Virus record (IMG/VR): IMGVR_UViG_3300037067_007163
Span: 7,496-71,495 of that record
Length of the DNA stretch: 64,000 nt
DNA from: a virus
Taxonomy: Duplodnaviria; Caudoviricetes
Strand: one strand, 5' to 3'
The notes below the pieces were generated by a model. The model was not told where the DNA came from. It saw nothing but the letters and a program-made list of their open reading frames with translations, and did not search any database. Below are positions 20,867 through 57,319 of this stretch, piece after piece. Numbering within the stretch: position 1 is the stretch's first letter; each line of letters starts with the position of its first letter. A program made the position numbers and the translations under genes.

Positions 20867-21316
20867 ATGGCTGACTTGGTAAAAGCAATGCGAGATGGTT
20901 ATCGGACCACGATTGACTTCACAGGAGCTGGCACGGTATTCGAAGAAATCAGTGTGCAACCGCCTGGATTAGACGTTGGTACTCCTATTGATACCACAAC
21001 GATGCGTCGTACAAAGTATCGTGGCAAAGCACCCCGCAAATTGTTGGACGCCCCTGATGGTGATCTAACGGTTGCTTATGACCCCACAGCATACACCACG
21101 TTTGCAACTCTGTTGGGCAACAACCAATTGATCACGGTTACTTGGCCTGATGGTGGTACTCGTGCATTTTGGGGGTATGCCGGATCTTTTATTCCCGATG
21201 CCCTTGAAGAGGGAAAACGTCCGACGGCAAAAATCAGAATTGTTGAAACCGATACCAATGCTAGCGGTGTTGAGACCGATCCGGTCGAAACTGCTGCGAC
21301 CGGCACTGGTTGGTAA
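20867..21316 (+). CDS. Major tail tube protein
   Basis: IDTTTM, LTVAYDP, ITVTWPDG...FWGY; AAGGAG SD. Confidence 0.8.
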   Translation: MADLVKAMRDGYRTTIDFTGAGTVFEEISVQPPGLDVGTPIDTTTMRRTKYRGKAPRKLLDAPDGDLTVAYDPTAYTTFATLLGNNQLITVTWPDGGTRAFWGYAGSFIPDALEEGKRPTAKIRIVETDTNASGVETDPVETAATGTGW

Positions 21317-27578: not shown

Positions 27579-28640
27579 ATGGGTAGACGCGGAAGAGCCT
27601 GTTTTTGTTCATCCTGCAAGTGCGGCGAAACTACCATCACCGCAGATGGCACCGTTACGTGGATTTCTCACACCGTTGCCGATGGCGTGATTACCCGCGT
27701 CAACAACGAATCTCCTTGCATCACCTACTACGTTGATTCAGTCAGTGGCGGCGGTGCGGAATCAGGTACAGGCACGGAACTTGATCCCTGGACGAACTTG
27801 AACACCGTTTTCTCTGATACGTGTATCTACACGATTTGCAATGGCGGTTCCGAGGGATCGAGCGGTTGTCCGATGGTCAAGGTATTGGTGAAGGGCACAA
27901 TTGACTATGCAGTAGTGGGCAATAGCGGGCAGAACTATCAAAGAAAGTTGGTGATTGAACCGTGGGACGCTGAAACAATTACGATAAATGTTACCGGAAC
28001 TGGCGTAACTGCTTGTGCGGTGAAAGACTGTATTGGCTGCATCTGGAAAAGTACAGATGCAGCCAGCACTTGTACTGGATCTGCCAGCTATGGCTTCTAT
28101 GGCTGCTCTTCCTCGATATTTAATGCATGCACTGGAACTGGTACAGGAAATGGCACCACCTTCTATAGCAACGGTTATGGATTTTACTATTGCAATTCTT
28201 CTACGTTTGATACATGCACTGGCACGGGTAGTGGCGATGACCTCGGAAATGGTTATGGCTTTGCTAGATGCTCTTCTTCTACGTTTGATACATGCACTGG
28301 AACTGGTACAGGAAACGTAACTGGATACAGTATCTACTTCGGAAATGGTTATGGCTTCGAGAGCTGCTCTTCTTCTACGTTTGATACATGCACCGGCACT
28401 GGCACGGGAAACGACGACGGCTGGGGTTATGGCTTCGAGAGCTGCTCTTCTTCTACGTTTGATACATGCACCGGCACTGGTATTTCCGGCAGTTATGGCT
28501 ATGGCTTTTCCCAATGTTCTTCCTCCGATTTTAATGCCTGTGGTGGTGTTAGTACGACCTGCGGATTTGCGGGGTGCTCTTCTGGTTCCACATTCACCAA
28601 CTGCACGGCAACACCAACCGGATCACCTTGCGACACGTAA
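27579..28640 (+). CDS. Cys/Gly/Ser-rich repeat tail fibre-like protein (beta-solenoid)
   Basis: About 7 repeats of GYGFxxCSSSTFDTCTGTGTG. Confidence 0.7.
   Translation: MGRRGRACFCSSCKCGETTITADGTVTWISHTVADGVITRVNNESPCITYYVDSVSGGGAESGTGTELDPWTNLNTVFSDTCIYTICNGGSEGSSGCPMVKVLVKGTIDYAVVGNSGQNYQRKLVIEPWDAETITINVTGTGVTACAVKDCIGCIWKSTDAASTCTGSASYGFYGCSSSIFNACTGTGTGNGTTFYSNGYGFYYCNSSTFDTCTGTGSGDDLGNGYGFARCSSSTFDTCTGTGTGNVTGYSIYFGNGYGFESCSSSTFDTCTGTGTGNDDGWGYGFESCSSSTFDTCTGTGISGSYGYGFSQCSSSDFNACGGVSTTCGFAGCSSGSTFTNCTATPTGSPCDT
28347..28480 (+). repeat. Two identical 56-bp direct repeats (78-bp period) within a coding repeat array
   Basis: ggttatggcttcgagagctgctcttcttctacgtttgatacatgcaccggcactgg at 28347 and 28425. 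Confidence 0.9.
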
Positions 28641-29129: not shown

Positions 29130-30395
29130 TTATTGCGGCAGAAAATCCTGAACAACGGTCACTTCACGGACCTGTTTGCTATCAGGCTCAAACGTGCGAA
29201 TCTTGACCTGAATGCCCCGCAGGGGAATTGGGTATGGCGGGCATGTTAATTTCTCAGCATCGTCATCGACTATTCCGTTTCCATCGGTATCAAACCCGTC
29301 ACTACTGCAACCTGCCCTCGAATCAGAAGCGTAGCAGCCAGTCGCCTCGTAGTGGCTCGAATAAGTATCGTAGACTCTGGCCGTCGTACTCGTTGCTTGC
29401 AGACCTGAAAGAGACTGTCCAAATCCGCAGAATGGCGTTGCCTTGGATGGATCGTATCCAAGATCCACATAAGCCATCACGCCAGTATCAAACGCTTTCA
29501 CGTCGAAACCAATCACGTTAGTGAGAATAACATCGTCAGCAATCCGCGTCTCTGTACTTGGTGAGTTGGTCAGATAATTATCCGCGAAACGATTGGTAGT
29601 ATCATTAGTCCAAAAATCCATTGTCGCCTTTGTCGGCAATGACCCAGGGAAAGGAAGCGAAGCGGCACTTAGAATTGAGCATTCTCGAATTGTTGGCAAT
29701 CCCAACTGACCCCAGCCCCTGACATCATAGGGCCAATTATTCTGATTATTTTTCCATGGCTTATGTGCATATCGACACTCTCTTTTAGTTAAGTCACCTA
29801 GTGTGTTTGGAACGTATCCTGCAAAAGCACCTATTGCATCCCACGTAGCATGCAATGACAAATCATGATAAGCATGGAATCCAGCCTCTTTAACACTACT
29901 CAAGTTGGCACCAGGTGCTACAAGAAGCACACGGCGGTGGAGCGTGTTGCCTCGCAGGAACCACGCCACCTCAGCTACGTCGGATTGAATGGTATTCGCA
30001 CCACTTTTGCCCACGAACGGCTGGCCATTGCTATGCGTGGTGAACATCAAGATGTCGTCGAAATCGCCAACGGTTGTATCTGCCGGAGTGTTAGCCACTT
30101 CACTGTTTCGTGCATAACTTGGAGCTGTTGCTTGTATAATTGGTCCCTCAATGTACTCAAAATACCCAAGATTCTTTTCTGCATCAAGAGGGGGGATCAT
30201 TGTGGCAGTGGCCCCTTGTAAATCTAACTGTAGTCGTATTTCGGCTAAACGTATCCTATCAGCCGATTCAAGCATAGATCGAGAATCAGTAATGCTTTCG
30301 GCAACTTTTCCAAACATTTGAACAACAGCACCAATAAGCACAAGAGATAGTGCAGTGGCAACCAACATTTCAACAAGAGTCGTTCCGTGTTTCAT
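29130..30395 (-). CDS. Type IV pilin/T2SS pseudopilin-like protein (PilW/GspJ-like, large)
   Basis: MKHG|TTLVEMLVATALSLVLIGAVVQMF prepilin cleavage motif with Glu5 and hydrophobic helix; GAGGTG SD. Confidence 0.8.
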   Translation of the reverse strand: MKHGTTLVEMLVATALSLVLIGAVVQMFGKVAESITDSRSMLESADRIRLAEIRLQLDLQGATATMIPPLDAEKNLGYFEYIEGPIIQATAPSYARNSEVANTPADTTVGDFDDILMFTTHSNGQPFVGKSGANTIQSDVAEVAWFLRGNTLHRRVLLVAPGANLSSVKEAGFHAYHDLSLHATWDAIGAFAGYVPNTLGDLTKRECRYAHKPWKNNQNNWPYDVRGWGQLGLPTIRECSILSAASLPFPGSLPTKATMDFWTNDTTNRFADNYLTNSPSTETRIADDVILTNVIGFDVKAFDTGVMAYVDLGYDPSKATPFCGFGQSLSGLQATSTTARVYDTYSSHYEATGCYASDSRAGCSSDGFDTDGNGIVDDDAEKLTCPPYPIPLRGIQVKIRTFEPDSKQVREVTVVQDFLPQ

Positions 30396-30588
30396 TAGAC
30401 ACCTCTTTATCTGCGCTGTATTGCTTTCCAGCGACTATTGCCCAGATCGAAATAAACAAGGACACGTGTACAAATTCAGCAATCACTCCATATCCAACAC
30501 CATAAGCCTGACTAATAACAACAATTGTACCTGGCAGACTAAGGCCAAGAGTCAACAAAAGAGTGGCACGACAATTAAGCCTCAACAT
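30370..30588 (-). CDS. Small two-TM membrane protein
   Basis: Hydrophobic; overlaps neighbouring genes in the leftward cassette. Confidence 0.5.
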   Translation of the reverse strand: MLRLNCRATLLLTLGLSLPGTIVVISQAYGVGYGVIAEFVHVSLFISIWAIVAGKQYSADKEVSNETRNDSC

Positions 30589-30773
30589 GTTGTTTGCCCC
30601 CCACGTTGTTTATTTTGCAACTCTTCCTTTAGTGCTTCTGCTGTAGCTTTCCAAGTTGACGATTGTGCATTGATTTCCCTTTCGAGATCCCAAACACGTT
30701 TCCATCCAGCAGCCGCTATAATAAGCAGTGCAGCATCAAAAAAGAATGATCCAAACGATGGTAAATCTAACAC
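30582..30773 (-). CDS. Small membrane/coiled-coil protein
   Basis: GGAGGTG SD; TM followed by coiled coil. Confidence 0.55.
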   Translation of the reverse strand: MLDLPSFGSFFFDAALLIIAAAGWKRVWDLEREINAQSSTWKATAEALKEELQNKQRGGQTTC

Positions 30774-30849
30774 GATACACCTCCAATGACTAAATTTGCG
30801 AAAACGTAATTGTAACTGATTGGTGTTGTTAAAGGTTTAGCAGCCACAT

Positions 30850-30881
30850 CTATTATACTAAGTACAAACAAAACCGTAAAT
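30850..30881 (-). promoter_or_regulatory. Sigma70-like promoter for the leftward pilin cassette
   Basis: Minus strand TTTACG-17 nt-TATAAT. Confidence 0.65.
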
Positions 30882-30903: not shown

Positions 30904-31167
30904 GTGGTTGGGGTAGGAACAGAATTGAAGCGATTGTTGCAAAAGTTGTGGATACAACCTTGTGAAAAATGCGATGGTAGAGCCATCATCATGGATGAAG
31001 AAGGGCCACAATGGTGTAGAGACAATGCAGACTTGATTGTTGGTTGGATGCAAGAAGAGGCAAAGCAGCGTGGTTTACCCTTTATTAAATTTGGAGCTAA
31101 GTTATTGCTGATGCAGGCAATTATTAGCACAGAAAAGAAACTAACAATTTTAGGAGAAAAATCATGA
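30904..31167 (+). CDS. Small Cys-containing protein at the start of the glycan cluster
   Basis: GTELKRLL...CEKC...GPQWC...IVGWMQEEA; overlaps the next gene. Confidence 0.55.
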   Translation: MVGVGTELKRLLQKLWIQPCEKCDGRAIIMDEEGPQWCRDNADLIVGWMQEEAKQRGLPFIKFGAKLLLMQAIISTEKKLTILGEKS

Positions 31168-31871
31168 GATGGACCTGTGGTATCACAACAGTAGCAGAAA
31201 GAGTTTGTGGGGGAATGCTAGCAAAAACACAAGAGTCATTGAAGAATGCTGGGTTCACAATTGACCGGCTATTCATTGATGGTCATGCAGATGTAGAAGA
31301 TACTGCTACTATACGTGAACCAAAGATTAGCATTGTAGGTAACTACCTATTAGGAATGTTGGAGCTGTATATTCGTGAACCTCACGCTGACCTGTATGCC
31401 ATGTTTCAAGATGATATTATTGCTGTAAAGAACCTACGGCAGTACATTGAGCAACATGAGTTTCCGCATAAGGGTTACTTGAACCTTATTACATTCCCAG
31501 AAAATACAATTCTCAGTGGTGGTAAACAAGGGTGGTTTGCTAGCAATCAATTAGGACGAGGAGCAATAGGATTGATATTCAATCAAGAGGGGTTGTTAAC
31601 ACTGCTAGGTAGTCCAGTAACACTAGACAAGCCAAGATTGATAATCAACCATGCACACCGAGTTTATCCCCACAAGAACTTGGATGGTATGATTGTAACT
31701 GCTATGAAACGTGCAGGTTGGAAAGAATACGTACACAATCCAAGCTTATTGCAACATACTGGTGGTGGGCAAACCACATTAGACAATCACATTGGTAATG
31801 ATCGTTGGCCTGGAGCTGATTCTTTTCCAGGTGAAGAATTTGATGCACTATCATTGCTTGGAGTAGAGTAG
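31164..31871 (+). CDS. GT-A fold glycosyltransferase-like protein
   Basis: MFQDDII (DxD-like), PSLLQHTG. Confidence 0.65.
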   Translation: MRWTCGITTVAERVCGGMLAKTQESLKNAGFTIDRLFIDGHADVEDTATIREPKISIVGNYLLGMLELYIREPHADLYAMFQDDIIAVKNLRQYIEQHEFPHKGYLNLITFPENTILSGGKQGWFASNQLGRGAIGLIFNQEGLLTLLGSPVTLDKPRLIINHAHRVYPHKNLDGMIVTAMKRAGWKEYVHNPSLLQHTGGGQTTLDNHIGNDRWPGADSFPGEEFDALSLLGVE

Positions 31872-31872
31872 C

Positions 31873-33069
31873 ATGAAGATTTGTTTGGTTCGATGCCCCT
31901 CACCGTTCTTAATAGAAGACAAGGCTTTTCCACCCTTGGGTCTATTGTCTGTTGGTACAGGCTTAAAACTGCATGGACACGAAGTAGTGATACATGATGG
32001 ACCACTGGCTGAGATACCAATAGGACATGAAGGCTACGGATTTGGTCCTACTGCTCCAGAGTATCCCCATGCATTGCTTGGCATGGACTTGATTCGAGAA
32101 TACGCTCCAAAAGCCAAAGTAATACTAGGTGGACCGCATGCTACGTTGAATTTTAAGTCTTGCTGTAATGATGGTTGGGATTGTATCGTTGTAGGGGACG
32201 GTGACTTAATTGCACACGACGCATTTGTTGGTGAAGAGCATTTGCTATTTGCAGAAGATCAACCTTTAGACAATTACCCCATTCCTGATCGCACATTGAT
32301 CAACCTGACAGATTACGAATATTGGTTGAACGGTCGTTTAGCTACAACATTGGTAACTTCACGTGGCTGTCCTTTCCGTTGTGCCTTCTGTTGTAAGAAT
32401 CACAATCGTGTTAGGTTTCGTAGTGCAGCTAAGGTGATTGAAGAGATTGACCTGCTGCACTTTCAATTCGGGTACAACGCATTACTATTCCCCGAAGACA
32501 TTTTTATTCTAGATAGAACTCGTGCAGAAGTTGTGTGTTACCATCTAAAAAGTCTTAACATCACTTGGCGTTGTTTAGTGCGTGCAGATGTGCTAGTCAA
32601 ATATGGTGTTGAATTCATAAGAATGATGAAGGATTGTGGTTGTGTAGCAGTTGGTATTGGTGTAGAGTCTGGGTCACAAGCAATTCTTGAAACCATTCAA
32701 AAGGGCGAGAGTTTAGAGACAATCAAAACTGCAATTTACTTGCTCAAAGCAGAAGGAATCCATGTGAAGGGATTCTTTGTGATTGGATTGCCCAGTGAGA
32801 GTCCAGAAACATTGGCAGAGACAGAGCAATTCATTGCAGAGATGCCTTTGGATGACTTCGATTGCAAAATATACAATCCCTATCCTGGTAGTCCTATCTA
32901 TGATCACCGTGAACAATATGACATTCATTGGACAGACGTGAATTTGTCTCAGTCATTCTACAAAGGAAGACCCGGAGAATATCATGGTAATGTGTCCACT
33001 TCATTAGCAACTACAGAACAAATCGTAGCTTCTTGGAAACGTATAGAACAAACATACAAAAGATGGTAG
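31873..33069 (+). CDS. Cobalamin-dependent (class B) radical SAM enzyme
   Basis: N-terminal B12-binding region (PPLGLL, ILGGPHAT), SRGCPFRCAFC, IGVESG, FVIGLPSE. Confidence 0.9.
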   Translation: MKICLVRCPSPFLIEDKAFPPLGLLSVGTGLKLHGHEVVIHDGPLAEIPIGHEGYGFGPTAPEYPHALLGMDLIREYAPKAKVILGGPHATLNFKSCCNDGWDCIVVGDGDLIAHDAFVGEEHLLFAEDQPLDNYPIPDRTLINLTDYEYWLNGRLATTLVTSRGCPFRCAFCCKNHNRVRFRSAAKVIEEIDLLHFQFGYNALLFPEDIFILDRTRAEVVCYHLKSLNITWRCLVRADVLVKYGVEFIRMMKDCGCVAVGIGVESGSQAILETIQKGESLETIKTAIYLLKAEGIHVKGFFVIGLPSESPETLAETEQFIAEMPLDDFDCKIYNPYPGSPIYDHREQYDIHWTDVNLSQSFYKGRPGEYHGNVSTSLATTEQIVASWKRIEQTYKRW

Positions 33070-33074
33070 GAAGC

Positions 33075-33830
33075 ATGACCCCAGACCGAATAATTTCCGT
33101 ATGTATTGGTATTAGGAATCAAGCACACTTAATACCTTACACATTAGACAGTATCTATGCTCAAAACATCAGTGGCTACGAGTTGGAAGTGATTGTCACG
33201 GATGATGGGTCTGATGACGGTGTCAGTGAAATCTTAGATAGGTATCCACTCACCCACTTGTACTTAGAAAATCACACCTACCACAATGGTGTGTACGCTA
33301 AGAATTCAAGCCTTAAAAGTGCACACGGTGACTTGATCATACAGCAAAGTGCTGATGTTATTCACTCCACCACAAATGTAATCAAGTCTTTAGTGGAAGC
33401 ACTGCCAGGACGTCGTGCTACCTTTGCCTCTGTTCATAACTACCATCGAGACAAGGGTATTGCAGACGACTTTCAGTATACGGGATTAGCAAACCGCAGA
33501 CCATTCTTCTTTCTTGGTGCATGCTATCGAGAAGACGTATGTAGTGTTGGGGGATATGATCCACTGTTAGGTGATGTGGTTTACTATGATGACAATTGGC
33601 ATGCTGACTGCTTGCTCAATACCTGTCATGTAAAACCCCTATTCTTAGAAGTGGTGGGGTGGCATCAGAACCACGACCGTTGTATCTATGACACAGCACC
33701 TGCAAAGAGTGTTTACTATAGATTGTTGAGAGAAGCAGTGGAAGGAAAGATCAAGTACATTTCTTCTAGTGGCCCTTGGCCCTACATTCCTGGCAGGTCT
33801 GTAGCAGAGATAGATCGAGGTGCAATATGA
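33075..33830 (+). CDS. GT2-family glycosyltransferase
   Basis: EVIVTDDGSDD, KNSSLKSAHGD, QSAD. Confidence 0.85.
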   Translation: MTPDRIISVCIGIRNQAHLIPYTLDSIYAQNISGYELEVIVTDDGSDDGVSEILDRYPLTHLYLENHTYHNGVYAKNSSLKSAHGDLIIQQSADVIHSTTNVIKSLVEALPGRRATFASVHNYHRDKGIADDFQYTGLANRRPFFFLGACYREDVCSVGGYDPLLGDVVYYDDNWHADCLLNTCHVKPLFLEVVGWHQNHDRCIYDTAPAKSVYYRLLREAVEGKIKYISSSGPWPYIPGRSVAEIDRGAI

Positions 33831-34375
33831 CAACGGCTGTAATCACATTAGATACTGGGGGTAAACAGCAGGAATGTTGTACTCTATTTAATGACCTCTC
33901 TCAGTATAGTAACTTACCAAGTTCTGTGGACAAGTTGATACTCTGTGATCCCAGCACCCCTGCTATAGACTTTGCTACCTTAGTTCCTGTAACCACAGAC
34001 TATTCAGGATTGTCCCCTAACCCAAAAGATCAAGACTCCTTTAAGAAGCTGTTTACATTCTTAATGCCTTACGACCGTGCTATCTATCTTTCACCAGATC
34101 TATCCTACAAGAAAGATATTTCCATACTGTGGTCAGAGTCTCACTTACTTCAACATCTGCTCTATGCTAGACACTTACCCAATGGATTTTTCGATGATAA
34201 TGTAATGGTGTTCAACCACAACTTACTGTTAGGATTCCATGACATCTTAGTTTACCTGACAAGAACTAGATTGTTTGAAGGTTACGGATACACTTGTAAG
34301 GATGTATTGAATGGGTACTTTTGCCACACCAAAAGAAAAGTTGGTGACTTGTCCAAGGAGTTAAACTTAGGATGA
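33827..34375 (+). CDS. Divergent GT8-like protein
   Basis: FKKLFTF...YDRAIYLSPD resembles GT8 YDRxxxLDxD with the DxD degenerate. Confidence 0.5.
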   Translation: MTTAVITLDTGGKQQECCTLFNDLSQYSNLPSSVDKLILCDPSTPAIDFATLVPVTTDYSGLSPNPKDQDSFKKLFTFLMPYDRAIYLSPDLSYKKDISILWSESHLLQHLLYARHLPNGFFDDNVMVFNHNLLLGFHDILVYLTRTRLFEGYGYTCKDVLNGYFCHTKRKVGDLSKELNLG

Positions 34376-35427
34376 ACAATACTTACACCCAATTCAAAGG
34401 TAGTAATCCATTTGCATCTCAGGCAAAGACTTTGTTTCACGGAGATCGTATCAGTGACTATCTAAGAACTGGTGATTGCATGCCAGTGTTCTGTGAGGTA
34501 AATCTAACAAACACTTGCAACTTGCAGTGTCAATGGTGTATCAGTGAGAACTTCAAGCATGGTCAAGACACTTTACAGACAGATGCAATGCTTAGGTTTG
34601 CTAAAGACTTTGCTGCATCTGGTGGTAAGGCAATTACATTTTCTGGTGGTGGTGAACCAACGCTGCACCCTAACTTCACAGAGATTATTGAGGGTTGCAA
34701 GCAGGCTGGTTTAGAGATTGGATTGATGACCAATGGTGCTTATGCTATTGAGCTGAATAATGTAATTGCTAACAACATGCAGTGGGTGAGATTCAGTTTA
34801 GACACATTAGACCAAGTGCACTATAAGCAATGGAAGGGGGTAGACAGACTGGATCAGGTGTTGGCCAATGTTTCTATTCTCTCACAGAAAGGGGCGGCGA
34901 AGGTTGGTATCAACTGTAATGTGCACAAGAACCTTACCATTCGAGAAGTGGATGACCTGATCAATATGCTGGATGAGTGTGGTGCATCTTACCTACAGTT
35001 TCGGCCAGTTATTCCTCGATACTTTAAGTTAGAAACAATTGAACTCAATTCTCGTGTTTGGAATTACTTATCCACTGTGCAAGATGCTCGTATCAACTAC
35101 TCACTTGATAAATACAACGACTTGGCTGCTGGCACTATATTTCCCTTTAGTTCATGTGAGGCACATCGTCTTAGCTTTGTAGTAAACAGCAACGGCGACT
35201 TATTGCCTTGCATGTACCATCCTAATGATTCACGATTTGTGTTTGGTAACATCTACAACAATCACTTCCATGAAATATGGAAATCAGAACAACGGCAGTC
35301 TACAATTCAATTCATGCAACATGGATTAGATATGCATCGTGAATGTCAACTGTGCTGCAAGTTGTGCGAATTAAATAAATTGTTTGAGTTTCTCAAGACT
35401 AATGGAATGGACGTAAACTTTCTTTAG
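34372..35427 (+). CDS. Radical SAM/SPASM-domain protein
   Basis: CNLQCQWC, FSGGGEP, C-terminal CEAH...PC...FGNI...C..CC. Confidence 0.9.
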   Translation: MNNTYTQFKGSNPFASQAKTLFHGDRISDYLRTGDCMPVFCEVNLTNTCNLQCQWCISENFKHGQDTLQTDAMLRFAKDFAASGGKAITFSGGGEPTLHPNFTEIIEGCKQAGLEIGLMTNGAYAIELNNVIANNMQWVRFSLDTLDQVHYKQWKGVDRLDQVLANVSILSQKGAAKVGINCNVHKNLTIREVDDLINMLDECGASYLQFRPVIPRYFKLETIELNSRVWNYLSTVQDARINYSLDKYNDLAAGTIFPFSSCEAHRLSFVVNSNGDLLPCMYHPNDSRFVFGNIYNNHFHEIWKSEQRQSTIQFMQHGLDMHRECQLCCKLCELNKLFEFLKTNGMDVNFL

Positions 35428-35437
35428 GAGATAAGTT

Positions 35438-36172
35438 GTGAAGACAGCTATTGTAACAGTTGCCACTGGTGACTATATTGAAGGTGCAAGGGTATTCTAC
35501 AAAAGTCTAGAAAGACATGGAATGCCTGACTGGATTGACAGGCTGGTAGTTGGGCCAGAGACATGTGACTTTGCACAACCAATACCAATGACAGAAGATT
35601 ACTCTTGGGTATCAGCTCCAAATCTAAAGAATAAAGAATCGCTCAAAAACTTCTACTCATTAACACTGGATTATGACCGCGTGCTTAGTGTTAATGCAGA
35701 CATGCTTTGCATTGGTGACCCTTCCTATCTTTGGTCAGATAGAATTGGTAATCTACCATTCTATGTTGGTCACGACACTGCTGCTCAAATCTACTATCCA
35801 GACAATCTTAAACGACTGGGATTGGATCCGTTTATTGTGTTCAATGCAGGTTTGTATGTCTACTGTCGTGGAGCATATCCAAACCTACATGAAGATCTGA
35901 TGTCAGATATAAGGGATGGTAAGTTAGAAACCTATGAGGTTGGTGATCAAGGATTTTGGAATCACTTCTTCAGTCTCCACAGATTAGAGATAGGTTGGCT
36001 ACCAACAGGGTTAAACTACTGCTTAGATCAACACTTTCCACCACCATTGGTAGCAGATCAACGGCTGGTTCATTTCTGTGGGCCGAAGCCATGGCGAGAG
36101 AAGAGAATAAACGACTGGACATTGCCTTACTACAAAATGTGGGAGAATGAGCGAGATGGAATCTATAGTTGA
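35438..36172 (+). CDS. GT8-family glycosyltransferase
   Basis: YDRVLSVNADML, FNAG, GDQGFWN, N...VHFCGPKPW. Confidence 0.85.
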   Translation: MKTAIVTVATGDYIEGARVFYKSLERHGMPDWIDRLVVGPETCDFAQPIPMTEDYSWVSAPNLKNKESLKNFYSLTLDYDRVLSVNADMLCIGDPSYLWSDRIGNLPFYVGHDTAAQIYYPDNLKRLGLDPFIVFNAGLYVYCRGAYPNLHEDLMSDIRDGKLETYEVGDQGFWNHFFSLHRLEIGWLPTGLNYCLDQHFPPPLVADQRLVHFCGPKPWREKRINDWTLPYYKMWENERDGIYS

Positions 36173-37100
36173 CGTTCCAAAGGTGTTTCGACCGGACCCC
36201 TGCTTTGAATATCCTCGTTACAACACAATAACCTTTGAGGAGTATTTTTACAGGTACTTTCTAAAGCACCAACCAGTAACCAAAAGGAAGTATCTACCAA
36301 TTTTGTGGTCCGTGTTTTACTACACACGGCATTACCGCAACGATGGTACACAAGACTTACAAAAATACTTGGATGAATTAGATCCGAGTCAATCCTATTT
36401 TACCATTTGTGCTTACGATGGTGGCACATTTGAAAGAACAAGTCATTTAGACCTCAAGGTGTTCAGCTCTATTGGTGACACTGTCAGCATGAATTGGAAT
36501 ACCTACAAAGGCAATGTAGGAGACCGTGCTATTCCTCTAACTCTTACTCCTGCTCCAAACATCAACTTAGACCGTAAGAGAGATGTACTGGCAGGATTCG
36601 TGGGTGCTCGTACCAGTCCAGAACGAGAAGTCATTTGGAATGTGCTGAGCAATGAACCAGGTTTTGAAGTAAGAGAAAGCATTGTAAGTCCTGTGTGCAG
36701 CTTTGAGAAGATGGATACAGATAAGTGGGCAACGGTAGGGTATGAAGGGTTCAAAGACCTAATGGAGCGTAGTGTATTTGCTCTTTGCCCACGTGGTAGC
36801 AGTCCCACGACATTTCGTATTTGTGAAAGCTTGCAGTATGGTTGTGTGCCGGTCTATGTTAGTGACCATTTTTGGTTCCCTTGGTCAAATCCGAAAGACC
36901 CAAGTGACCACGGTATGTTTGACCAAATCGGTATCACTTGCACAACAAGAGAGATCCCTGATCTTCCTAGAAGATTAAGAAGCATGTCAAAGTCTAGAAT
37001 CAATGATTATTTGCAAGCAGGCAAAGAACTGTACCAAGACTACTTTAGTTCTGAAGGTTGTGCAGCACGTATTGTAGAAGAGGTCAACTGCAATGGATAA
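36147..37100 (+). CDS. Exostosin (GT47)-family glycosyltransferase
   Basis: MERSVFALCPRG...RICESLQYGCVPVYVSD...PW. Confidence 0.85.
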   Translation: MSEMESIVDVPKVFRPDPCFEYPRYNTITFEEYFYRYFLKHQPVTKRKYLPILWSVFYYTRHYRNDGTQDLQKYLDELDPSQSYFTICAYDGGTFERTSHLDLKVFSSIGDTVSMNWNTYKGNVGDRAIPLTLTPAPNINLDRKRDVLAGFVGARTSPEREVIWNVLSNEPGFEVRESIVSPVCSFEKMDTDKWATVGYEGFKDLMERSVFALCPRGSSPTTFRICESLQYGCVPVYVSDHFWFPWSNPKDPSDHGMFDQIGITCTTREIPDLPRRLRSMSKSRINDYLQAGKELYQDYFSSEGCAARIVEEVNCNG

Positions 37101-37689
37101 TCAAATTCTAGAATACTGGGAACAAGCACATCAATGTCAAGATGCAACAAGATTGACTGGCACTAGCTTGGCAGGACACTTAGACTTTCTAAAGGTGTCT
37201 GTGTCACCCAATAAAAACACGTTGTGCATTGGTACTGGTGATGGAGGTTGGGTAAGAGAGATTGTACATCAATTACACAACAGCAGTGGGTGTGTTTGGT
37301 CACTAGACATTGTTGAAAGCAATATCGCTGGTGCTATATCCATTTGTGATCCTGCATTATTGTCATCTAATTTATTTGACACAGCAATGTCACTATGGGT
37401 GTCGCCTCACATGGACGATAACGATCTAGCAAAGCAAATGAAACATGTTGTTAGATCACTGTTTGGAAACGGTGTATTTGCTTTACACTACAATGAGCCT
37501 TTGAGTGCTGAACAATACATTGCTCCGGCTTGTGTTGGAACCATGATGGCTGGTACTGTGCTAAGAACTCGAGAAACATTTAATACCATGGTGAAGGAAT
37601 CTGGTGGTGTTTCAGAAATTGTCAATGTTCAACCTTGCCCTGAGTATGACATGCAAATGGTTGCTGCTCATGTTAGGAGAAAAGTATGA
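37093..37689 (+). CDS. SAM-dependent methyltransferase-like protein
   Basis: LCIGTGDG motif I, LDI motif II. Confidence 0.7.
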   Translation: MDNQILEYWEQAHQCQDATRLTGTSLAGHLDFLKVSVSPNKNTLCIGTGDGGWVREIVHQLHNSSGCVWSLDIVESNIAGAISICDPALLSSNLFDTAMSLWVSPHMDDNDLAKQMKHVVRSLFGNGVFALHYNEPLSAEQYIAPACVGTMMAGTVLRTRETFNTMVKESGGVSEIVNVQPCPEYDMQMVAAHVRRKV

Positions 37690-38030
37690 GTGAAGAGATC
37701 AAACTAACCACCAAGCTGCATGTTCGCCGTAGTGATGGATACGAACACTACTTGTTTTATTGTCCTGGTTGTTTAGAAATACACCCATTCTGTACCAGAA
37801 ATGATAGCAGTCCATCATGGAAACCTTGGCAGTTCAATGGCAACACTAGTAGTCCAACTTTTACTCCTTCACTGCTCTTGAAGCGAAGTCAGTTTGATTA
37901 TGATGGGTGTGGTCCCAGATGCCACTCTGTAGTGACAGATGGAAAGATAAGTTTCTGTACTGACTGTGAACATAATTTAGCTGGTAAGACTGTTGACATG
38001 ATTGATTTTCCGGAGGAGGCTAATTCGTGA
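37686..38030 (+). CDS. DUF6527-like Cys/His protein
   Basis: FYCPGC..H, WQFNG...PTFTPSLL, RCHSVVTDGKI.FC.DC.H.LAG. Confidence 0.75.
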   Translation: MSEEIKLTTKLHVRRSDGYEHYLFYCPGCLEIHPFCTRNDSSPSWKPWQFNGNTSSPTFTPSLLLKRSQFDYDGCGPRCHSVVTDGKISFCTDCEHNLAGKTVDMIDFPEEANS

Positions 38031-38785
38031 TTCCTAGGGTAATGAACTTCTTTTGGTCTGGTTCCCACATGACGTTCATGCGTTACATGACCCTCTACAG
38101 CTTCAGGAAGTTAAACCCAAACTTTCGTATCATTCTTTGGTCTCCTAGTAGTCCTTGTAGAGGAAAGACATGGGTTAGTAGTGAAGTTGATGACGATAGC
38201 TATCAAGGAGAAAATTACCTACCAAGAATAGAAGATCTAAAAATAGAACGCAAGACATGGAGTCCAATGTTTGAAGGGCTTTCTCACTCTCAAGCATCTG
38301 ACTTATTCGAATGGCAACTACTGTCTACTATTGGGGGCATTTATTGTGACATGGACGTATTGTGGCTCATGCCCCTTGAGTCAATCAGGCAAGCTTATTG
38401 GAATAGTGATGTTTTGTACTGCTTAGAAAATAATGGGCAGATGTTTGCCATAGGATTCTTTGGGGCTAGTCCACGCTGCACTATGTTTCAAGACATCTAC
38501 CACTCAGCGATTAGAAACTATGTACCTGAAAGATACGAATCTGCTGGCATATCAGCAGCTTATCTATCAACAGGAAGAGCACATTCTGCAACAGCCACTA
38601 TAGATTACTTCAAGTCTAAGTATCCTGGGTTGAGTATCTCTCGTCTACCTGATGTTTCTTTATACCCTTTTGACTGTCGCAATTACCCAAAGATTTTCAC
38701 CAGTACTGCAGATGTGTCAGATAGGTGCTTAGGATTACATTGGTTTGGGGGTGGTCCAGTAGCCAGCAATGGAACAGATTGTTAA
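38027..38785 (+). CDS. DxD glycosyltransferase (GT32-like), C-terminus possibly frameshifted
   Basis: GGIYCDMDVLW, GLHWFGG; an alternative frame continues to 38874. Confidence 0.8.
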   Translation: MIPRVMNFFWSGSHMTFMRYMTLYSFRKLNPNFRIILWSPSSPCRGKTWVSSEVDDDSYQGENYLPRIEDLKIERKTWSPMFEGLSHSQASDLFEWQLLSTIGGIYCDMDVLWLMPLESIRQAYWNSDVLYCLENNGQMFAIGFFGASPRCTMFQDIYHSAIRNYVPERYESAGISAAYLSTGRAHSATATIDYFKSKYPGLSISRLPDVSLYPFDCRNYPKIFTSTADVSDRCLGLHWFGGGPVASNGTDC

Positions 38786-38861
38786 CAGCCAAAAACTATA
38801 AAAATTATGACAACACTTTCACACGTTGCTGCCATAAAATACTTGATGGCAAGGGGGACTT

Positions 38862-39788
38862 ATGCGTTGTTTAGTAACAGGTGGATGCGGATTCATTGGC
38901 TCTAACTTGGTGGATCTACTGCTAAAAGAAAATCATGATGTCATTGTGTTAGATAACCTATCAAACCGACGAATGGTAGATCTACCTTCTGCATGTAAGT
39001 TTATCAAGGGTAATGTAATTCATCGGGAGGATGTAGATAGTGCCATGAGTGGTTGTCAGGTTGTGTTTCACCTAGCAGCCTCTGTAGGTAATGCACGCTC
39101 CATTGCTAGACCTGTAGACGATGCCACAATTAATGTGTTAGGTACACTTAACATACTAGAGGCAGCAAGGGAATTCAAAGTTCAACGGGTGGTGTACTCT
39201 TCTTCGGCTGGCATATTTGGAGAAATGAAACAATTGCCTGTTAGAGAAGACCATCCTTGTGAGCCAGATTCTCCCTATGGCTGCACCAAGCTGTGTGCAG
39301 AGAAGTTGTGCCTAGCATACACACATGTACATGAATTAAGTGCAGTTTGCTTGCGGTACTTTAACGTGTATGGACCCAGACAAAGGTATGATGCCTATGG
39401 TAACGTAATTCCTATTTTTGCAAAGATGTTACTTGCCAACACACCATTGACTGTTTGTGGTAATGGTGAACAAACACGAGACTTTGTTAATGTTAGAGAC
39501 GTAGTACAGGCTAACTTTCTAGCAGCTACTGTTCCCAATGCTTCTGGAGTATACAATATTGGTAGTGGAGTAGGAACTTCTGTCAACAGGTTGATTGAGA
39601 TAATGGGTGGCAATGAAGTTATCTACGTCAATCCTAGACCTGGAGATGTGCTACACAGTACAGCAGACATTGAAAAAGCCAAGAGAGAATTGGGGTACTC
39701 ACCCTCAATAACACTCACAGGAGGAATCAAGGAATACTTAAATTGGTTCAAACAAGACCAAGCAACGGAAGCACTAACAATGTTGTAG
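38862..39788 (+). CDS. NAD-dependent nucleotide-sugar epimerase (GalE/WbpP-like)
   Basis: TGGCGFIGS, YSSSA, YGCTK, LRYFNVYGP. Confidence 0.9.
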   Translation: MRCLVTGGCGFIGSNLVDLLLKENHDVIVLDNLSNRRMVDLPSACKFIKGNVIHREDVDSAMSGCQVVFHLAASVGNARSIARPVDDATINVLGTLNILEAAREFKVQRVVYSSSAGIFGEMKQLPVREDHPCEPDSPYGCTKLCAEKLCLAYTHVHELSAVCLRYFNVYGPRQRYDAYGNVIPIFAKMLLANTPLTVCGNGEQTRDFVNVRDVVQANFLAATVPNASGVYNIGSGVGTSVNRLIEIMGGNEVIYVNPRPGDVLHSTADIEKAKRELGYSPSITLTGGIKEYLNWFKQDQATEALTML

Positions 39789-39799
39789 TGGGGGGATCC

Positions 39800-40543
39800 A
39801 TGAGAACGTCTATTTGTATTGCTACGCACGACAAGCCAATGTTGCTAAAGAATACATTACGCAGTATCTTTAGCCAATCAATTACAGATGCTGAAGACAT
39901 TGAGGTTATTGTAGTAGATGATCGTGGTACTGGACAATGTAACCATAGAGTCTGTGAATTGTTTCCTGCTAAGTACATTCGATTAGAAGGGGAACCAGGA
40001 TTTAAGAATCCTGCTAAGGCTAGAAATGTTGCCTACAAAGCAGCAACAGGAGAAGTTGTCATTTGTCAAAGTGACGATGTAATTCATGGCTGTGACACAA
40101 TACGACGACTAACAGAGGAATTAAGGCATGGGGAGTTTTTGATTGCTACGGTGTGGAATGTAGACGATGAGCTGTTGCCTGTAGGATTACGGGGACTTGG
40201 AGAACGGGGTGAAAACATAAAACTGTTGACGGGCAAAGACAATAAACGTCCCTTGTTCTTTTTAGGTAGCCTTTGGCGTAAAGATTTGTATGCTGTTGGT
40301 GGTAATGATGAAGACTTCATCACTGGTGGAAGAGAAGATATTTGGTTTGCAGATTGCCTAATCCGTGGTTTGAAGTTGACCACAAGATACATTGATGTAT
40401 TGGGATACCATCAAGACCACGCTAGGCCGGCAAACGCCGAAGAGATGGGGCGGGCTGCTGCTGAAGTATATAGCCGTAAGAGACAAGCAGCACAGAAAAG
40501 CCATGTCTGGTGTTCAGCCAGTGGACCATGGAAGTTTGAATAA
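39800..40543 (+). CDS. GT2-family glycosyltransferase
   Basis: EVIVVDD, ARNVAYKAATGE, QSDD; paralog of 33075-33830. Confidence 0.85.
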   Translation: MRTSICIATHDKPMLLKNTLRSIFSQSITDAEDIEVIVVDDRGTGQCNHRVCELFPAKYIRLEGEPGFKNPAKARNVAYKAATGEVVICQSDDVIHGCDTIRRLTEELRHGEFLIATVWNVDDELLPVGLRGLGERGENIKLLTGKDNKRPLFFLGSLWRKDLYAVGGNDEDFITGGREDIWFADCLIRGLKLTTRYIDVLGYHQDHARPANAEEMGRAAAEVYSRKRQAAQKSHVWCSASGPWKFE

Positions 40544-40558
40544 TCAACGGAGGTTTCT

Positions 40559-41572
40559 ATGTTTTTAGATAAAGTTTTGTTAGTGACTGGCGGCACTGGT
40601 TCATTTGGCAATGCTGTGATTCGTAGGTTTTTGAAAACTGATATTCAAGAGATTAGAATATTTAGTAGGGATGAAAAGAAGCAAGATGATATGAGAAGGA
40701 AATATTGTTCACCGCTATTGTCATTTTATCTTGGTGATGTACGTGATGAACATAGTGTGGTCAATGCAATGGCAGGTGTAAACTATGTTTTTCATGCTGC
40801 AGCTCTTAAACAAGTACCTTCTTGTGAATTTTACCCACTTGAATCTTTGCGTACTAATTCATTAGGTGCTGAAAATGTAATGAATGCTGCAATAGCTAAC
40901 CATGTAAAGCAGGTTATCATTCTTAGCACTGATAAGGCTGTTTATCCAATCAATGCAATGGGTATATCGAAAGCCATGGCAGAAAAGCTAATGTTAGCTA
41001 AGTCACACGCAGCATGGGGAGCCGGCACCACACTATGTGGCACTCGGTATGGAAATGTAATGGCTTCTCGCGGATCGGTAATCCCTCTGTTTGTCAAACA
41101 AATTAAGGAAGGGCTACCATTGACAATCACTGAACCTGCTATGACTCGGTTCATGATGTCAATTGACAATGCTGTTGATCTTGTGTTATATGCCTTTCAA
41201 CATTCAACACCAGGTGACTTGTTTGTTCAAAAGGCTCCAGCAGCTACAATTGAAACATTGGTCTTGGCCATGAAAAAGATTTTTAAGGCCGAGAATCCGA
41301 TTCGGGTAATAGGCACTCGTCATGGTGAAAAGATTTACGAAACTTTGCTAACGCGAGAGGAAATGCAGAAGGCCAAGGATTGTAGTAATTATTATTGCAT
41401 CCCAGCAGACATGAGAGACTTGAATTATGAGGCATTTTTCTCCAATGGTATACCTGCTATTGCAAAGCAAGAAGATTATAATTCACACAACACGCGAAGA
41501 CTTGATGTGGATGAAATGGTTGGGATTTTACTCAATCTAAAATACATTCAGGACGAATTGAAGGGATGGTAG
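40559..41572 (+). CDS. fnlA: UDP-GlcNAc 4,6-dehydratase/5-epimerase (FnlA/CapE/WbjB)
   Basis: TGGTGSFG, SRDEKKQDDMR, HAAALKQVPSCEFYP, STDKAVYPINAMGISKA. Confidence 0.95.
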   Translation: MFLDKVLLVTGGTGSFGNAVIRRFLKTDIQEIRIFSRDEKKQDDMRRKYCSPLLSFYLGDVRDEHSVVNAMAGVNYVFHAAALKQVPSCEFYPLESLRTNSLGAENVMNAAIANHVKQVIILSTDKAVYPINAMGISKAMAEKLMLAKSHAAWGAGTTLCGTRYGNVMASRGSVIPLFVKQIKEGLPLTITEPAMTRFMMSIDNAVDLVLYAFQHSTPGDLFVQKAPAATIETLVLAMKKIFKAENPIRVIGTRHGEKIYETLLTREEMQKAKDCSNYYCIPADMRDLNYEAFFSNGIPAIAKQEDYNSHNTRRLDVDEMVGILLNLKYIQDELKGW

Positions 41573-41574
41573 TC

Positions 41575-42696
41575 ATGATAGTTCTCATTACTGGCGCTCT
41601 GGGGTTTGTTGGTAGAAATCTTGTTCAAATGTTGCGACTTCGCGATGACGTGGAGATTATCGAGTATGACATCGGTTTTCCAGAACAGCAACTTGTTGAC
41701 GGAATAAACAAGTCTGATCTTATTTTTCATTTAGCAGGTGTGAGTCGTCCGCCAAATCCAGACGATTACGAGGCTAGCAATGTTGGATTCACCGAGGAGA
41801 TCTGCAGTCGTCTTGCCAATGCCAGCCGTGCACCGACAATCGTCTTTGCCTCGTCAATCCAAGCAGAGTTGGACAATCCCTACGGCCGCAGCAAGTTACA
41901 CGCCGAGGAATGCCTGCGCCGGTTTTCCGACACCTCGGGCGCTCGGGTCATGATTTTCCGTTGGACTAATTTGTTTGGCAAGTGGTGTCGGCCAAATTAC
42001 AACTCAGTGACAGCCACATTTTGCTATAATGTTGCACGAGGATTGCCATTTCAGGTTTCAAATCCAATCCGAGAAATTGAACTAGTATATGTTGATGATG
42101 TAGTGGCGTTGCTTATGGCAGAACTAGACGACAACAAAAGCCGTGAACAGGTTGTCATTGCACGAGTTAAGCCTACCTACCGCGTGACGCTAGGCAACCT
42201 AGCAACCACAATTCAGTCACTACACGATTCTCGAACGAATCTGACGATGCCTGATATGAGCAACAAGTTCATCCGTTGTCTTTATGCAACATATCTTTCA
42301 TACTTGCCAGAAAACGAGTTTGCATACCCATTGAACATCAAAAGAGACAACCGAGGCGAGTTGGCTGAGTTTCTAAAGTCACCGACGTTTGGCCAAATTT
42401 TCGTTTCACGCACGAAGCCTGGCATTACTCGCGGCAATCATTGCCACCATACCAAGGTAGAAAAGTTTTTGGTTGTTGAAGGTGACGCCGTCATCAGACT
42501 CCGCCACATTGAATCGAATGAAGTTATTTCATACCATGTATCTGGCAATGAATTCCGCGTCGTTGATATTCCTCCAGGCTATACGCACTTGATCGAAAAT
42601 GTTGGAACCAGTGAGATGGTCACGTTGTTCTGGGCCGACGAAATCTTCGATCCGGCAAATCCTGAAACGTATTTCATGAAGGTGTTACATGAATAG
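41575..42696 (+). CDS. fnlB: FnlB/CapF/WbjC reductase with C-terminal cupin
   Basis: [48 protein letters not shown]. Confidence 0.95.
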
Positions 42697-43816
42697 GCTT
42701 AAAATCGTAACCGTTGTTGGTACTAGACCCGAGATTATTCGTCTATCAAGGGTTATAGCGGCATTGGATCGCGAATGCGAGCACATCTTGGTCCATACCG
42801 GCCAAAACTACGACTACGAGCTTAACGAAATCTTTTTCCAAGACCTCGGTATTCGCAATCCAGATTATTTTCTCAAAGCAGCTGGTGCAAATGCAGCCGA
42901 GACGATCGGACAAGTAATTGCCAAGTCAGATGTTGTTCTTGAGAAAGTTGCACCACAAGCATTTTTGGTATTAGGTGATACGAATAGTTGTTTGGCGGCA
43001 TTAGCAGCAAAACGTCGCAAAATTCCAGTTTTTCATATGGAAGCTGGCAACCGCTGCTTTGATCAACGAGTACCTGAGGAAATCAACCGTAAGATTGTTG
43101 ATCATATCAGTGACATCAACATACCCTACAGTGACATTTCGCGAGAATACTTGCTGCGAGAAGGATTGTTGCCAGATCGGATCATCAAGACTGGTAGCCC
43201 AATGTTTGAGGTTCTTGCCCACTACCATGAAAAAATTGAGCATTCCGACATTCTTAATCTTCTGCAACTGAAGCAGTATGATTACTTTGTTGTCAGCGCA
43301 CATCGAGAAGAAAACATTGAATCACCTACCCAATTTGCTAAACTGGTTCAGCTGCTTAACGGATTGGCCAAGAATTATGGCAAGCAAGTAATTGTTTCAA
43401 CACATCCCCGCACCCGCAAACGAATAGATGCTGAAAAGGTCATGATTGACTCTCGTGTCAAGCTGATAAAGCCATTGGGATTTTGTGACTACAACAAACT
43501 ACAAATCAATGCAGCAGCAGTACTGTCAGACAGCGGTACCATCAGTGAAGAATCATCAATTCTAAATTTTCCGGCCTTAAACATTCGAGAAGTGCACGAA
43601 CGGCCCGAGGCCATGGAAGAAGCAGCTGTGATAATGACAGGGTTGGAGTTCGAGAACGTCGAGCGAGGGCTGGCTGTATTGTCTTCCCAAAAACGCGGTA
43701 AAGAACGCAGCCTGAGGATTGTGACTGATTATAGTGTTCCTAACGTGTCAGAAAAGGTTGTGCAAATCATTTTTAGCTACATTGATTATGTCAATCGTGT
43801 GGTTTGGCACAAATAG
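42689..43816 (+). CDS. fnlC: UDP-HexNAc 2-epimerase (FnlC/CapG/WbjD)
   Basis: [46 protein letters not shown]. Confidence 0.95.
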
Positions 43817-57082: not shown

Positions 57083-57319
57083 GTGGTTGAACATATTAAA
57101 GATACCAGTTGCAATGGTAATTGCGGAGGAACTTGTAACATTTGCTGCTTGTTCATTTGTAAGGTGTGTGGATTGTATGAAGGTAGTTTAACAACAGAAT
57201 GTCCTGGTGTTCCTTCTTACAAAGACCATGCAGCTAAAGTCTATGCTGGATTAGAAGACTTCATTGATGGCAAGTGGATTGAAAAGAAACCAGAGGAGCA
57301 ATGGAATGGTAATCATTAG
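57083..57319 (+). CDS. Cys-rich small protein
   Basis: C..C..CC...CKVCG..EGSLTTECPG. Confidence 0.6.
   Translation: MVEHIKDTSCNGNCGGTCNICCLFICKVCGLYEGSLTTECPGVPSYKDHAAKVYAGLEDFIDGKWIEKKPEEQWNGNH

Follow-up and report, generated by a model that had tools for sequence, protein, structure and literature searches.

A conserved helical protein and GT-A glycosyltransferase pair heads a variable phage gene cluster that may glycosylate virion proteins

The DNA analysed here is a 64,000-nucleotide stretch (hereafter the window) corresponding to bases 7496-71495 of the linear 71,495-bp IMG/VR record IMGVR_UViG_3300037067_007163, from a tailed phage of the Caudoviricetes (Duplodnaviria). Between positions 30904 and 43816 it contains 16 open reading frames (ORFs), all on the + strand and tightly packed or overlapping, which encode seven glycosyltransferase-like proteins, two radical S-adenosylmethionine (SAM) enzymes, a methyltransferase-like protein, an epimerase of the short-chain dehydrogenase/reductase (SDR) type, a DUF6527 protein and a complete FnlABC set. 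We propose, at a probability of roughly 0.45, that this cluster is a phage-owned cytoplasmic glycosylation system acting on virion proteins. A phage-encoded acceptor is favoured because the cluster is headed by a virus-specific glycosyltransferase of GT-A fold with a small partner protein, because the chemistry encoded downstream varies between relatives, and because of the late-strand location, the lack of a detected integrase and the Gly-Thr motifs of putative virion proteins.

The phage is remote from those in culture: no capsid of a cultured phage shares more than about 33% identity with its own, and megablast of the glycan cluster against cultured phages gave no DNA-level match. Searches of PHROGs returned no match for eight of ten cluster proteins and next to none for the tail genes. 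A related capsid protein is encoded on 47 IMG/VR contigs, and nine large relatives were compared whole. A co-occurrence survey in related phages, which had been proposed in a preliminary description of the window made from its sequence alone, showed one gene to be kept and the rest of the cluster to vary. Among the 15 cluster genes entered in the whole-genome comparison only this one (31164-31871), encoding a protein of 235 amino acids (aa), was conserved; it was found in eight of the nine relatives, with 37-46% identity and always directly after the tail genes. Its loci were found on at least 118 confirmed viral contigs of IMG/VR, and at least 823 proteins of the family were found in metagenomes, on phage-size contigs. 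Its neighbours in the ESM Atlas were mostly viral, including the nearest clusters, and tblastn against 50,697 records of cultured phages detected no relatives. These comparisons place the first two cluster genes, this one and the small gene preceding it (30904-31167), among the core genes of the lineage, outside the variable island.

The preliminary description had called the product of 31164-31871 a GT-A enzyme, a class marked by a Rossmann-like alpha/beta/alpha architecture and a DxD site that binds metal and nucleotide sugar. No Pfam model exists for the family, yet the assignment was borne out by an FQDD motif invariant in nine aligned sequences, with His198 also conserved, and by an AlphaFold2 (AF2) model (predicted local distance difference test score, pLDDT, 78.5; predicted TM-score, pTM, 0.81). 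In Foldseek this model retrieved 216 structures of the Protein Data Bank (PDB) at E<=0.001, the listed top ones being nearly all GT-A enzymes, with POMGnT1, Mimivirus R655 and R699, the collagen galactosyltransferase COLGALT1 and ppGalNAc-T2 leading. Because TM-scores were only about 0.5, no CAZy family was assigned. The protein is thus best described as a lineage-conserved glycosyltransferase of GT-A fold and a candidate initiating enzyme. Neither its profile nor that of the small partner matched any PDB sequence.

The partner is an 87-aa all-helical protein whose AF2 model (pLDDT 92.6) shows five helices and three conserved Cys; Foldseek of this model found nothing better than E 1.9. Its homologues were located directly upstream of the GT-A gene in 24 related loci, and in four loci the 87-aa domain and the GT-A domain form one in-frame polypeptide. 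In a fifth, the 87-aa-type domain ends a 657-aa, tentatively glycosyltransferase/methyltransferase-like protein (L156:4634-6607). A multi-domain fusion of 742 aa (L150:1373-3601) starts with an N-terminal region, which is followed by the 87-aa-type domain, the GT-A domain and a C-terminal GT1-like domain. The fusions were found in fetched loci, and a search for the longer form in a set of 5.8 billion proteins gave at least two proteins; a mixed alignment of fused and unfused 87-aa forms misplaced the short sequences and was not used for folding. We read the 87-aa protein and the GT-A enzyme as a single functional unit. The combination of a small ORF with a SPASM-domain enzyme had raised a reading of the two as a pathway for a ribosomally synthesized and post-translationally modified peptide, which was dropped since the 87-aa protein is folded, accompanies the GT-A enzyme in a conserved manner and in relatives is joined to it in one polypeptide.

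Downstream of this pair, the region 31873-43816 (ca. 12 kb) is specific to this phage, and relatives hold other genes at the same site, among them GT1-type transferases, methyltransferases, DegT aminotransferases, SDR enzymes and radical SAM enzymes. A sample of 150 random co-oriented ORFs downstream of GT-A in about 60 relatives contained 11 radical SAM enzymes, 10 SDR sugar enzymes, about nine methyltransferases, seven DegT aminotransferases, at least seven GT1-type transferases (detected with three overlapping Pfam models), four GT2 transferases, three sugar C-methyltransferases, three GNAT acetyltransferases and two cytidylyltransferases. Several island proteins of the window have counterparts in other members of the lineage: the first GT2 enzyme (33033-33830) in islands of other members at 34-35% identity, the GT8-like enzyme (35438-36172) in loci L158 and L174 at 41-43%, the second GT2 enzyme (39743-40543) in loci L158 and L103 at 46-49%, the GT32-like enzyme (38027-38785) in four related loci at 35-39%, and the SPASM radical SAM enzyme (34372-35427) in 11 related loci at 24-32%. 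For the GT47-like enzyme (36147-37100), none of the other phage loci examined held a relative. A GT-A gene that stays the same while the chemistry behind it changes agrees with a conserved acceptor encoded by the phage itself, and the lineage comparison as a whole suggests one. The eight relatives with GT-A are complemented by a distant one, G008, which lacks the gene and has a comparable glycan cluster between its capsid and connector genes, encoding a radical SAM enzyme, a GT2 transferase, a GT32-like transferase, an acetyltransferase, a PIG-L deacetylase and a second GT2 transferase. The first gene of this capsid-adjacent cluster (L098:1497-2210) weakly matched, at a score under the threshold, the MptE-like/DUF115 domain, which occurs in flagellin-glycosylating Maf proteins, and a homologue also lies behind the capsid gene in locus L042.

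The cluster of the window had been described as 15 contiguous co-oriented genes following the tail module. The co-orientation was confirmed; the number of ORFs is 16, and the cluster does lie on the late strand, sharing its GC skew with the structural genes, but it is not in direct contact with the tail genes. A leftward cassette (29130-30881, - strand), absent from the nine relatives, intervenes; it encodes a 421-aa protein (29130-30395) whose N-terminus (M-K-H-G-T-T-L-V-E-M-L-V...) resembles that of type IV pilins, and it holds two further small ORFs with hydrophobic products. The family assignments made beforehand were largely reproduced by Pfam and NCBIfam, as detailed below. Four cluster ORFs matched no Pfam family, namely the two core genes, 33776-34375 and 37093-37689.

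Among the transferases of the island, both GT2 enzymes matched Glycos_transf_2 (33033-33830, 53.6 bits; 39743-40543, 51.7 bits), 36147-37100 matched Exostosin_GT47 (53.2 bits) and 38027-38785, which has a D-M-D motif in the DXD sugar-binding region, matched Gly_transf_sug (34.5 bits) as a GT32-like enzyme. Two GT8-like enzymes had been proposed. One, 35438-36172, is a borderline match to Glyco_transf_8 (25.9 bits, cut-off 24.3), with the motif H-F-C-G-P-K-P-W and with N-A-D at the DxD position. The other, 33776-34375, turned out to be a truncated paralogue of the first (blastp E 1e-15, 27% identity) that has S-P-D where DxD is expected and is missing the C-terminal GT8 motif H-x-x-G-x-x-K-P-W; it is probably degenerate and possibly inactive. 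The predicted methyltransferase (37093-37689) rests on language-model similarity (ESM Atlas feature score 0.97; all 10 of the 10 best hits were methyltransferase clusters) and a GTGDGG motif, with no Pfam match and a chance-level NCBIfam match to speE, so that it is referred to as a class I SAM methyltransferase-like protein. The Cys-rich DUF6527 protein (37686-38030) was recognized by Pfam (38.3 bits) and as phrog_3362 (102 bits).

The cluster would supply part of its own sugars. FnlA, FnlB and FnlC (also named CapE/F/G or WbjB/C/D) form the pathway to UDP-N-acetyl-L-fucosamine (UDP-L-FucNAc), in which a 4,6-dehydratase/5-epimerase, a C4 reductase with a cupin-type C-terminal domain and a 2-epimerase act in this order. 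All three are present in canonical order: an FnlA-like UDP-N-acetylglucosamine (UDP-GlcNAc) 4,6-dehydratase/5-epimerase (40559-41572; TIGR04130, 534 bits, E 1e-160, cut-off 730), an FnlB/WbcJ-like reductase (41566-42696; NF047837, 400 bits, cut-off 500) and an FnlC/WecB-type UDP-N-acetylhexosamine (UDP-HexNAc) 2-epimerase (42689-43816; TIGR00236, 234 bits, above its cut-off of 210). Because FnlA and FnlB score below the equivalog cut-offs of NCBIfam, the product is given as predicted L-FucNAc or a related 6-deoxy-L-HexNAc. The SDR nucleotide-sugar epimerase/dehydratase (38862-39788) is GalE/TviC-like (Pfam Epimerase, 218 bits; GalE, 187 bits, below cut-off), and relatives with 56% identity adjoin bacterial fnlABC genes.

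The first radical SAM enzyme (31873-33069) combines a clear core (Radical_SAM, 65.6 bits) with a B12-binding-like domain just short of its threshold (31.0 bits, cut-off 32.1); cobalamin-dependent (class B) radical SAM enzymes have such a domain at the N-terminus in addition to a CxxxCxxC core. Among named families it comes nearest to HpnJ and PhpK, without reaching the cut-off of either, and its closest solved relative is the sugar diol-dehydratase AprD4 (6fd2, 85 bits), an enzyme that is not known to use cobalamin. The second (34372-35427; Radical_SAM 72 bits, SPASM 44 bits) matched SkfB, PqqE and MoaA in the PDB through its core and, weakly, BtrN through its auxiliary domain. Given these closest solved relatives, both enzymes plausibly tailor sugars.

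None of the 16 proteins has an evident transmembrane (TM) segment in a 19-residue Kyte-Doolittle scan, in agreement with the preliminary description; the sole hit was the Rossmann N-terminus of FnlB. The exporter and initiating enzyme stated to be missing were likewise not found: six-frame searches gave no match to Bac_transf, Glycos_transf_4, Wzy_C or Polysacc_synt. For the initiating phosphoglycosyltransferases (Bac_transf, Glycos_transf_4) the absence concerns the whole record, and as controls the two models hit 10 and 13 of 14 genomes. No ORF of the record contains over three hydrophobic segments, and no flippase, polymerase or ABC permease and no polytopic protein of a GtrABC system was found in it; the completeness of the record is 82%, and flippase, polymerase or permease could come from the host. 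Across 80 loci, only two polytopic ORFs were observed downstream of GT-A.

A soluble set of this kind is equally what would be expected if the phage remodelled the host envelope, its transferases acting on undecaprenyl- or lipid-linked intermediates that are started, flipped and ligated by host enzymes, with an altered lipopolysaccharide (LPS), capsule or holdfast glycan that would, for example, block superinfection or adsorption to debris. The same families of O-antigen and capsule loci are normally soluble, and GT2, GT8, GT32-like and GT47-like transferases with fnlABC and a GalE/TviC-like epimerase are the usual content of such loci. Further points for this explanation, which we consider less likely than glycosylation of virion proteins, are the syntenic bacterial origin of the fnlABC block, the presence of GT-A homologues in cellular glycan clusters of Planctomycetota, and the similar interpretation given to the large glycosyltransferase sets of cyanomyoviruses (PMC12801897). 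It is hard to reconcile with a GT-A enzyme and partner kept across more than 100 phages whose downstream chemistry differs, as glycans are not the same from host to host. It also sits poorly with the late-strand position, with the location of the G008 cluster inside a head module, and with the finding that the 80 bacterial fnlABC loci searched contained no relatives of the phage transferases within 8 kb. No tyrosine integrase was found in the record or in four near-complete relatives, in which serine recombinases were not searched, and classical lysogenic conversion is for this reason unlikely.

Candidate acceptors among the virion proteins were sought in the structural region. The major capsid protein (10352-11611, + strand) has a Thr/Ser/Gly-rich C-terminal extension of 12-13 residues ending in P-T-G-T-N-A, which is also present in its 93% relative, and the capsids of most relatives end in H-[AG]-T-T-[SA]. 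A putative tail-tube protein (20867-21316, + strand), whose role is assigned from gene order only, ends in A-T-G-T-G-W; its homologues end in S-G-T in five of eight relatives and in A-G-T in one more. A repeat-rich putative tail fibre (27579-28640, + strand) contains 20 TGT/GTG tripeptides versus 2.9 expected from composition, with 28.6% Ser+Thr. TGT/GTG tripeptides of this phage are concentrated in six proteins of the virion module. In nine genomes, 33 of 262 proteins of the structural region had a GT or TG dipeptide within their eight C-terminal residues, versus 26 of 476 others.

Combining these observations, the proposed virion glycosylation system would operate as follows. The 87-aa protein and the GT-A enzyme would recognise Gly-Thr or Thr-Thr motifs, often C-terminal, on capsid, tail tube and fibre, and attach the first sugar. 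The two GT2 enzymes and the GT8-like, GT47-like and GT32-like enzymes of the island would lengthen and edit the chain, FnlABC would convert host UDP-GlcNAc to UDP-L-FucNAc, the SDR epimerase would modify another UDP-sugar, and the two radical SAM enzymes and the methyltransferase-like protein would tailor sugars. Gene content, solubility, the pattern of conservation, the fusions and the distribution of motifs are observed; the acceptor, the order of the steps, the sugar products and any benefit are inferred, and masking of the virion or tuning of adsorption are conceivable benefits. Glycan assembly by soluble enzymes that need no carrier and make their own rare sugars, as envisaged beforehand, fits all results obtained. 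The capsid or tail acceptor named there is partly supported, with the less likely host-envelope route standing beside it. A broader statement is possible but somewhat doubtful: that a two-part virus-specific initiator, consisting of a new helical Cys domain and a new GT-A family, glycosylates Gly-Thr/Thr-Thr tags of capsid, tail-tube and fibre proteins in the cytoplasm throughout a large uncultured lineage probably infecting Planctomycetota, with phage-specific, rapidly evolving islands of transferases, rare-sugar pathways and sugar-editing radical SAM enzymes elaborating the glycan as a counterpart of the toolbox of giant viruses.

Acceptors outside the virion were also considered. One explanation, which we regard as improbable, holds that the cluster modifies a non-virion protein or a small molecule, for instance a host protein or the exported Thr-rich membrane proteins of the phage itself (13834-16085). 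The same late arm indeed encodes a TM-anchored protein in which a Ser/Thr stretch of ten residues includes eight Thr in a row, and a second Thr-rich protein of secreted type; sets of radical SAM enzymes, aminotransferases and transferases also build aminoglycoside-type products, as shown by the relatives AprD4 and BtrN, and the GT8 and GT32-like families include protein-modifying toxins. The Thr-rich proteins are, however, not kept in relatives that retain GT-A, and a Pfam pass over the 70 non-cluster proteins of the window revealed no gene that would carry or export a metabolite or confer resistance to it. The small proteins in question (13834-14211 and 15585-16085), which have an N-terminal hydrophobic segment and Thr runs and are encoded between head and tail genes, may be mucin-like acceptors.

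DNA had been mentioned as another acceptor, and this option has been weakened and is unlikely. Under it, the transferases would decorate a hydroxymethylated or otherwise activated base to evade restriction, as multi-sugar DNA glycans are known in phages (Pyle et al. 2024, as cited in PMC12619734). A gene of the thymidylate-synthase family does occur in the replication module of two relatives, G001 and G006, and the missing 18% of the record could hold such a gene. By contrast, three 100%-complete relatives with GT-A and sugar islands have no Thymidylat_synt gene at all, and the record itself gave no match to Thymidylat_synt, Tet_JBP (a search run without a positive control) or C5-methyltransferases; DNA_methylase was not found among the 70 non-cluster proteins. 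Moreover, the cluster lies beside virion genes and not beside replication or packaging genes, and seven transferases with L-FucNAc synthesis far exceed the known needs of DNA glycans. The thymidylate-synthase-family proteins of the two relatives (G001:C1:5847-6557 and G006:C1:16915-17487) are unusually long (448 and 376 aa) and could be base hydroxymethylases.

The distribution of GT-A homologues in cells bears on the host. The GT-A profile matched 11 of 401 genomes in the phylum of a Planctomycetaceae metagenome-assembled genome (MAG), most with 90-134 bits, and none of the 401, 401 and 351 genomes sampled in the phyla to which a Verrucomicrobia MAG, a Pseudomonas strain and a Bacteroidetes MAG belong, respectively (phylum names inferred in all cases). 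This distribution supports Planctomycetota as the probable host phylum. The cellular homologues examined showed 32-36% identity, and no phage structural genes were found within 10 kb of the chromosomal copies. In one Planctomycetota genome (L268, G110:C1:4025500-4045499), the homologue belongs to an operon of soluble proteins comprising a 1219-aa protein that unites GT1-like, methyltransferase and TPR domains with two domains of GT2 type, a separate GT2 enzyme, a cytidylyltransferase fused to a GT29-like domain and a radical SAM enzyme, adjoining a gene for a 2063-aa RHS-repeat protein. By its gene content, a comparable toolkit is present in cells. Distant GT-A homologues in soluble clusters were likewise seen at the chromosomal loci L272 and L266-L271, and in another Planctomycetota genome the homologue's cluster lies beside a gene for a kinase-STAND-FGE protein.

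Several points weigh against virion proteins as the acceptor. The argument has been built from sequences and structural models. Transferases of the GT2, GT8, GT32-like and GT47-like families, as well as fnlABC, typically serve to build lipid-linked envelope glycans, and missing membrane segments do not separate the hypotheses, because O-antigen and capsule glycosyltransferases are soluble as well and use host carriers. The soluble glycosyltransferase/methyltransferase clusters of Planctomycetota could belong to a polysaccharide pathway of the ABC-transporter type. The fnlABC genes were clearly taken from bacteria as a block: FnlA is 71% identical to its best match, a gene of the Planctomycetaceae MAG, FnlC is 70% identical to bacterial genes following fnlB, and the phage gene order recurs in 61-69 of 80 bacterial loci, with fnlB following fnlA in 61 of 80. 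Two relatives that carry GT-A have capsid ends without Thr-Thr. The C-terminal GT/TG enrichment (odds ratio 2.5) has a nominal p of 0.0007 that is inflated because homologous proteins were counted several times. Finally, the record is estimated to be 82% complete.

The regulation and remaining content of the window were surveyed in parallel. A scan for consensus promoters and terminators gave sites no more numerous than in shuffled sequences, and an 11-mer comparison of intergenic regions gave no promoter motif common to the cluster and the structural operon. The Pfam pass over the 70 non-cluster proteins recognised a portal, a ferritin, a sigma-70-type factor and repair enzymes, and no transporter, ligase, integrase, DNA-modifying or lysin family. 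The sigma-70-family factor, with regions 2 and 4, could drive late transcription, including that of the glycan cluster. A 254-aa protein encoded in a block of membrane proteins (14585-15349) has a G-F-C-W-A motif that recalls papain-like cysteine peptidases and may be a lysis enzyme. At 57264-58193, a uracil-DNA-glycosylase-superfamily domain is fused to DUF4326, both halves matching side by side in six relatives.

The kind of system proposed here is known from mycobacteriophages and giant viruses; new here are the enzymes, the conserved two-part unit, the presence of radical SAM enzymes and the host that is probable for it. According to PMC12363180 and PMC12619734, virions of mycobacteriophages Che8, Corndog and Myrna are O-glycosylated (Freeman et al. 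2023), with the C-termini of capsid and tail-tube subunits reported as acceptors, by soluble phage glycosyltransferases encoded between the virion genes or behind them. The present cluster differs in being much larger (16 genes), with its own L-FucNAc supply and two radical SAM enzymes, in a host that is probably of the Planctomycetota and not the Actinomycetota, and in being known from genes alone; its GT-A enzyme has no sequence relative in the 50,697 cultured-phage records, against which the other transferases were not compared singly. A further likeness is found in the fibril glycosylation of Megavirinae (Notaro et al. 2022, PMC10117803), whose clade-specific clusters of 6-33 genes combine rare bacterial amino-sugar pathways, including an FnlA-type route to N-acetyl-L-quinovosamine/N-acetyl-L-rhamnosamine (L-QuiNAc/L-RhaNAc), with soluble transferases, in a content that varies between clades; in addition, Mimivirus R655 and R699 rank high among the structures matched by the model of the GT-A enzyme. 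Those, however, are eukaryotic giant viruses with fibril-protein acceptors, and the literature examined does not mention a conserved two-part initiator or radical SAM enzymes in them.

The cyanomyoviruses P-SSM2, S-SCSM1 and S-SCSM2R are lytic and encode up to 13 soluble transferases together with nucleoside diphosphate-sugar epimerases, with an unproven acceptor (PMC12801897); theirs are scattered genes of 200-kb myoviruses, interpreted as modifying the host surface, whereas here a compact late-strand operon stands behind a lineage-specific GT-A gene. Phage DNA glycosylation, including T-even glucosylation and diverse 5-hydroxymethylcytosine (5hmC) glycans (Pyle et al. 2024), shares soluble transferases and the use of host nucleotide sugars, and differs from the present case, in which no base-activating enzyme was found in the record or in three complete relatives and the cluster adjoins virion genes. 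Serotype-converting phages resemble this one in carrying genes that alter a glycan, through GtrABC or a phage Wzy, and differ in that neither GtrA flippase, GtrB, GtrC and Wzy nor signs of lysogeny were found here. GtrABC conversion involves a GtrA with four TM segments, a membrane-anchored GtrB, a polytopic GtrC and a temperate lifestyle.

To our knowledge, glycosylation of phage virions has so far been shown only in a few mycobacteriophages. If this lineage does cover its particles with variable glycans tailored by radical chemistry, coating with sugars would be a strategy general among bacterial viruses, and the pair formed by the helical protein and the GT-A enzyme would represent a new type of protein-glycosylating enzyme and possibly provide a short acceptor tag for glyco-engineering. 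The islands would then be a source of sugar-modifying radical SAM chemistry, and the distribution of GT-A homologues gives a lead to Planctomycetota hosts for a group of phages without a cultured member.

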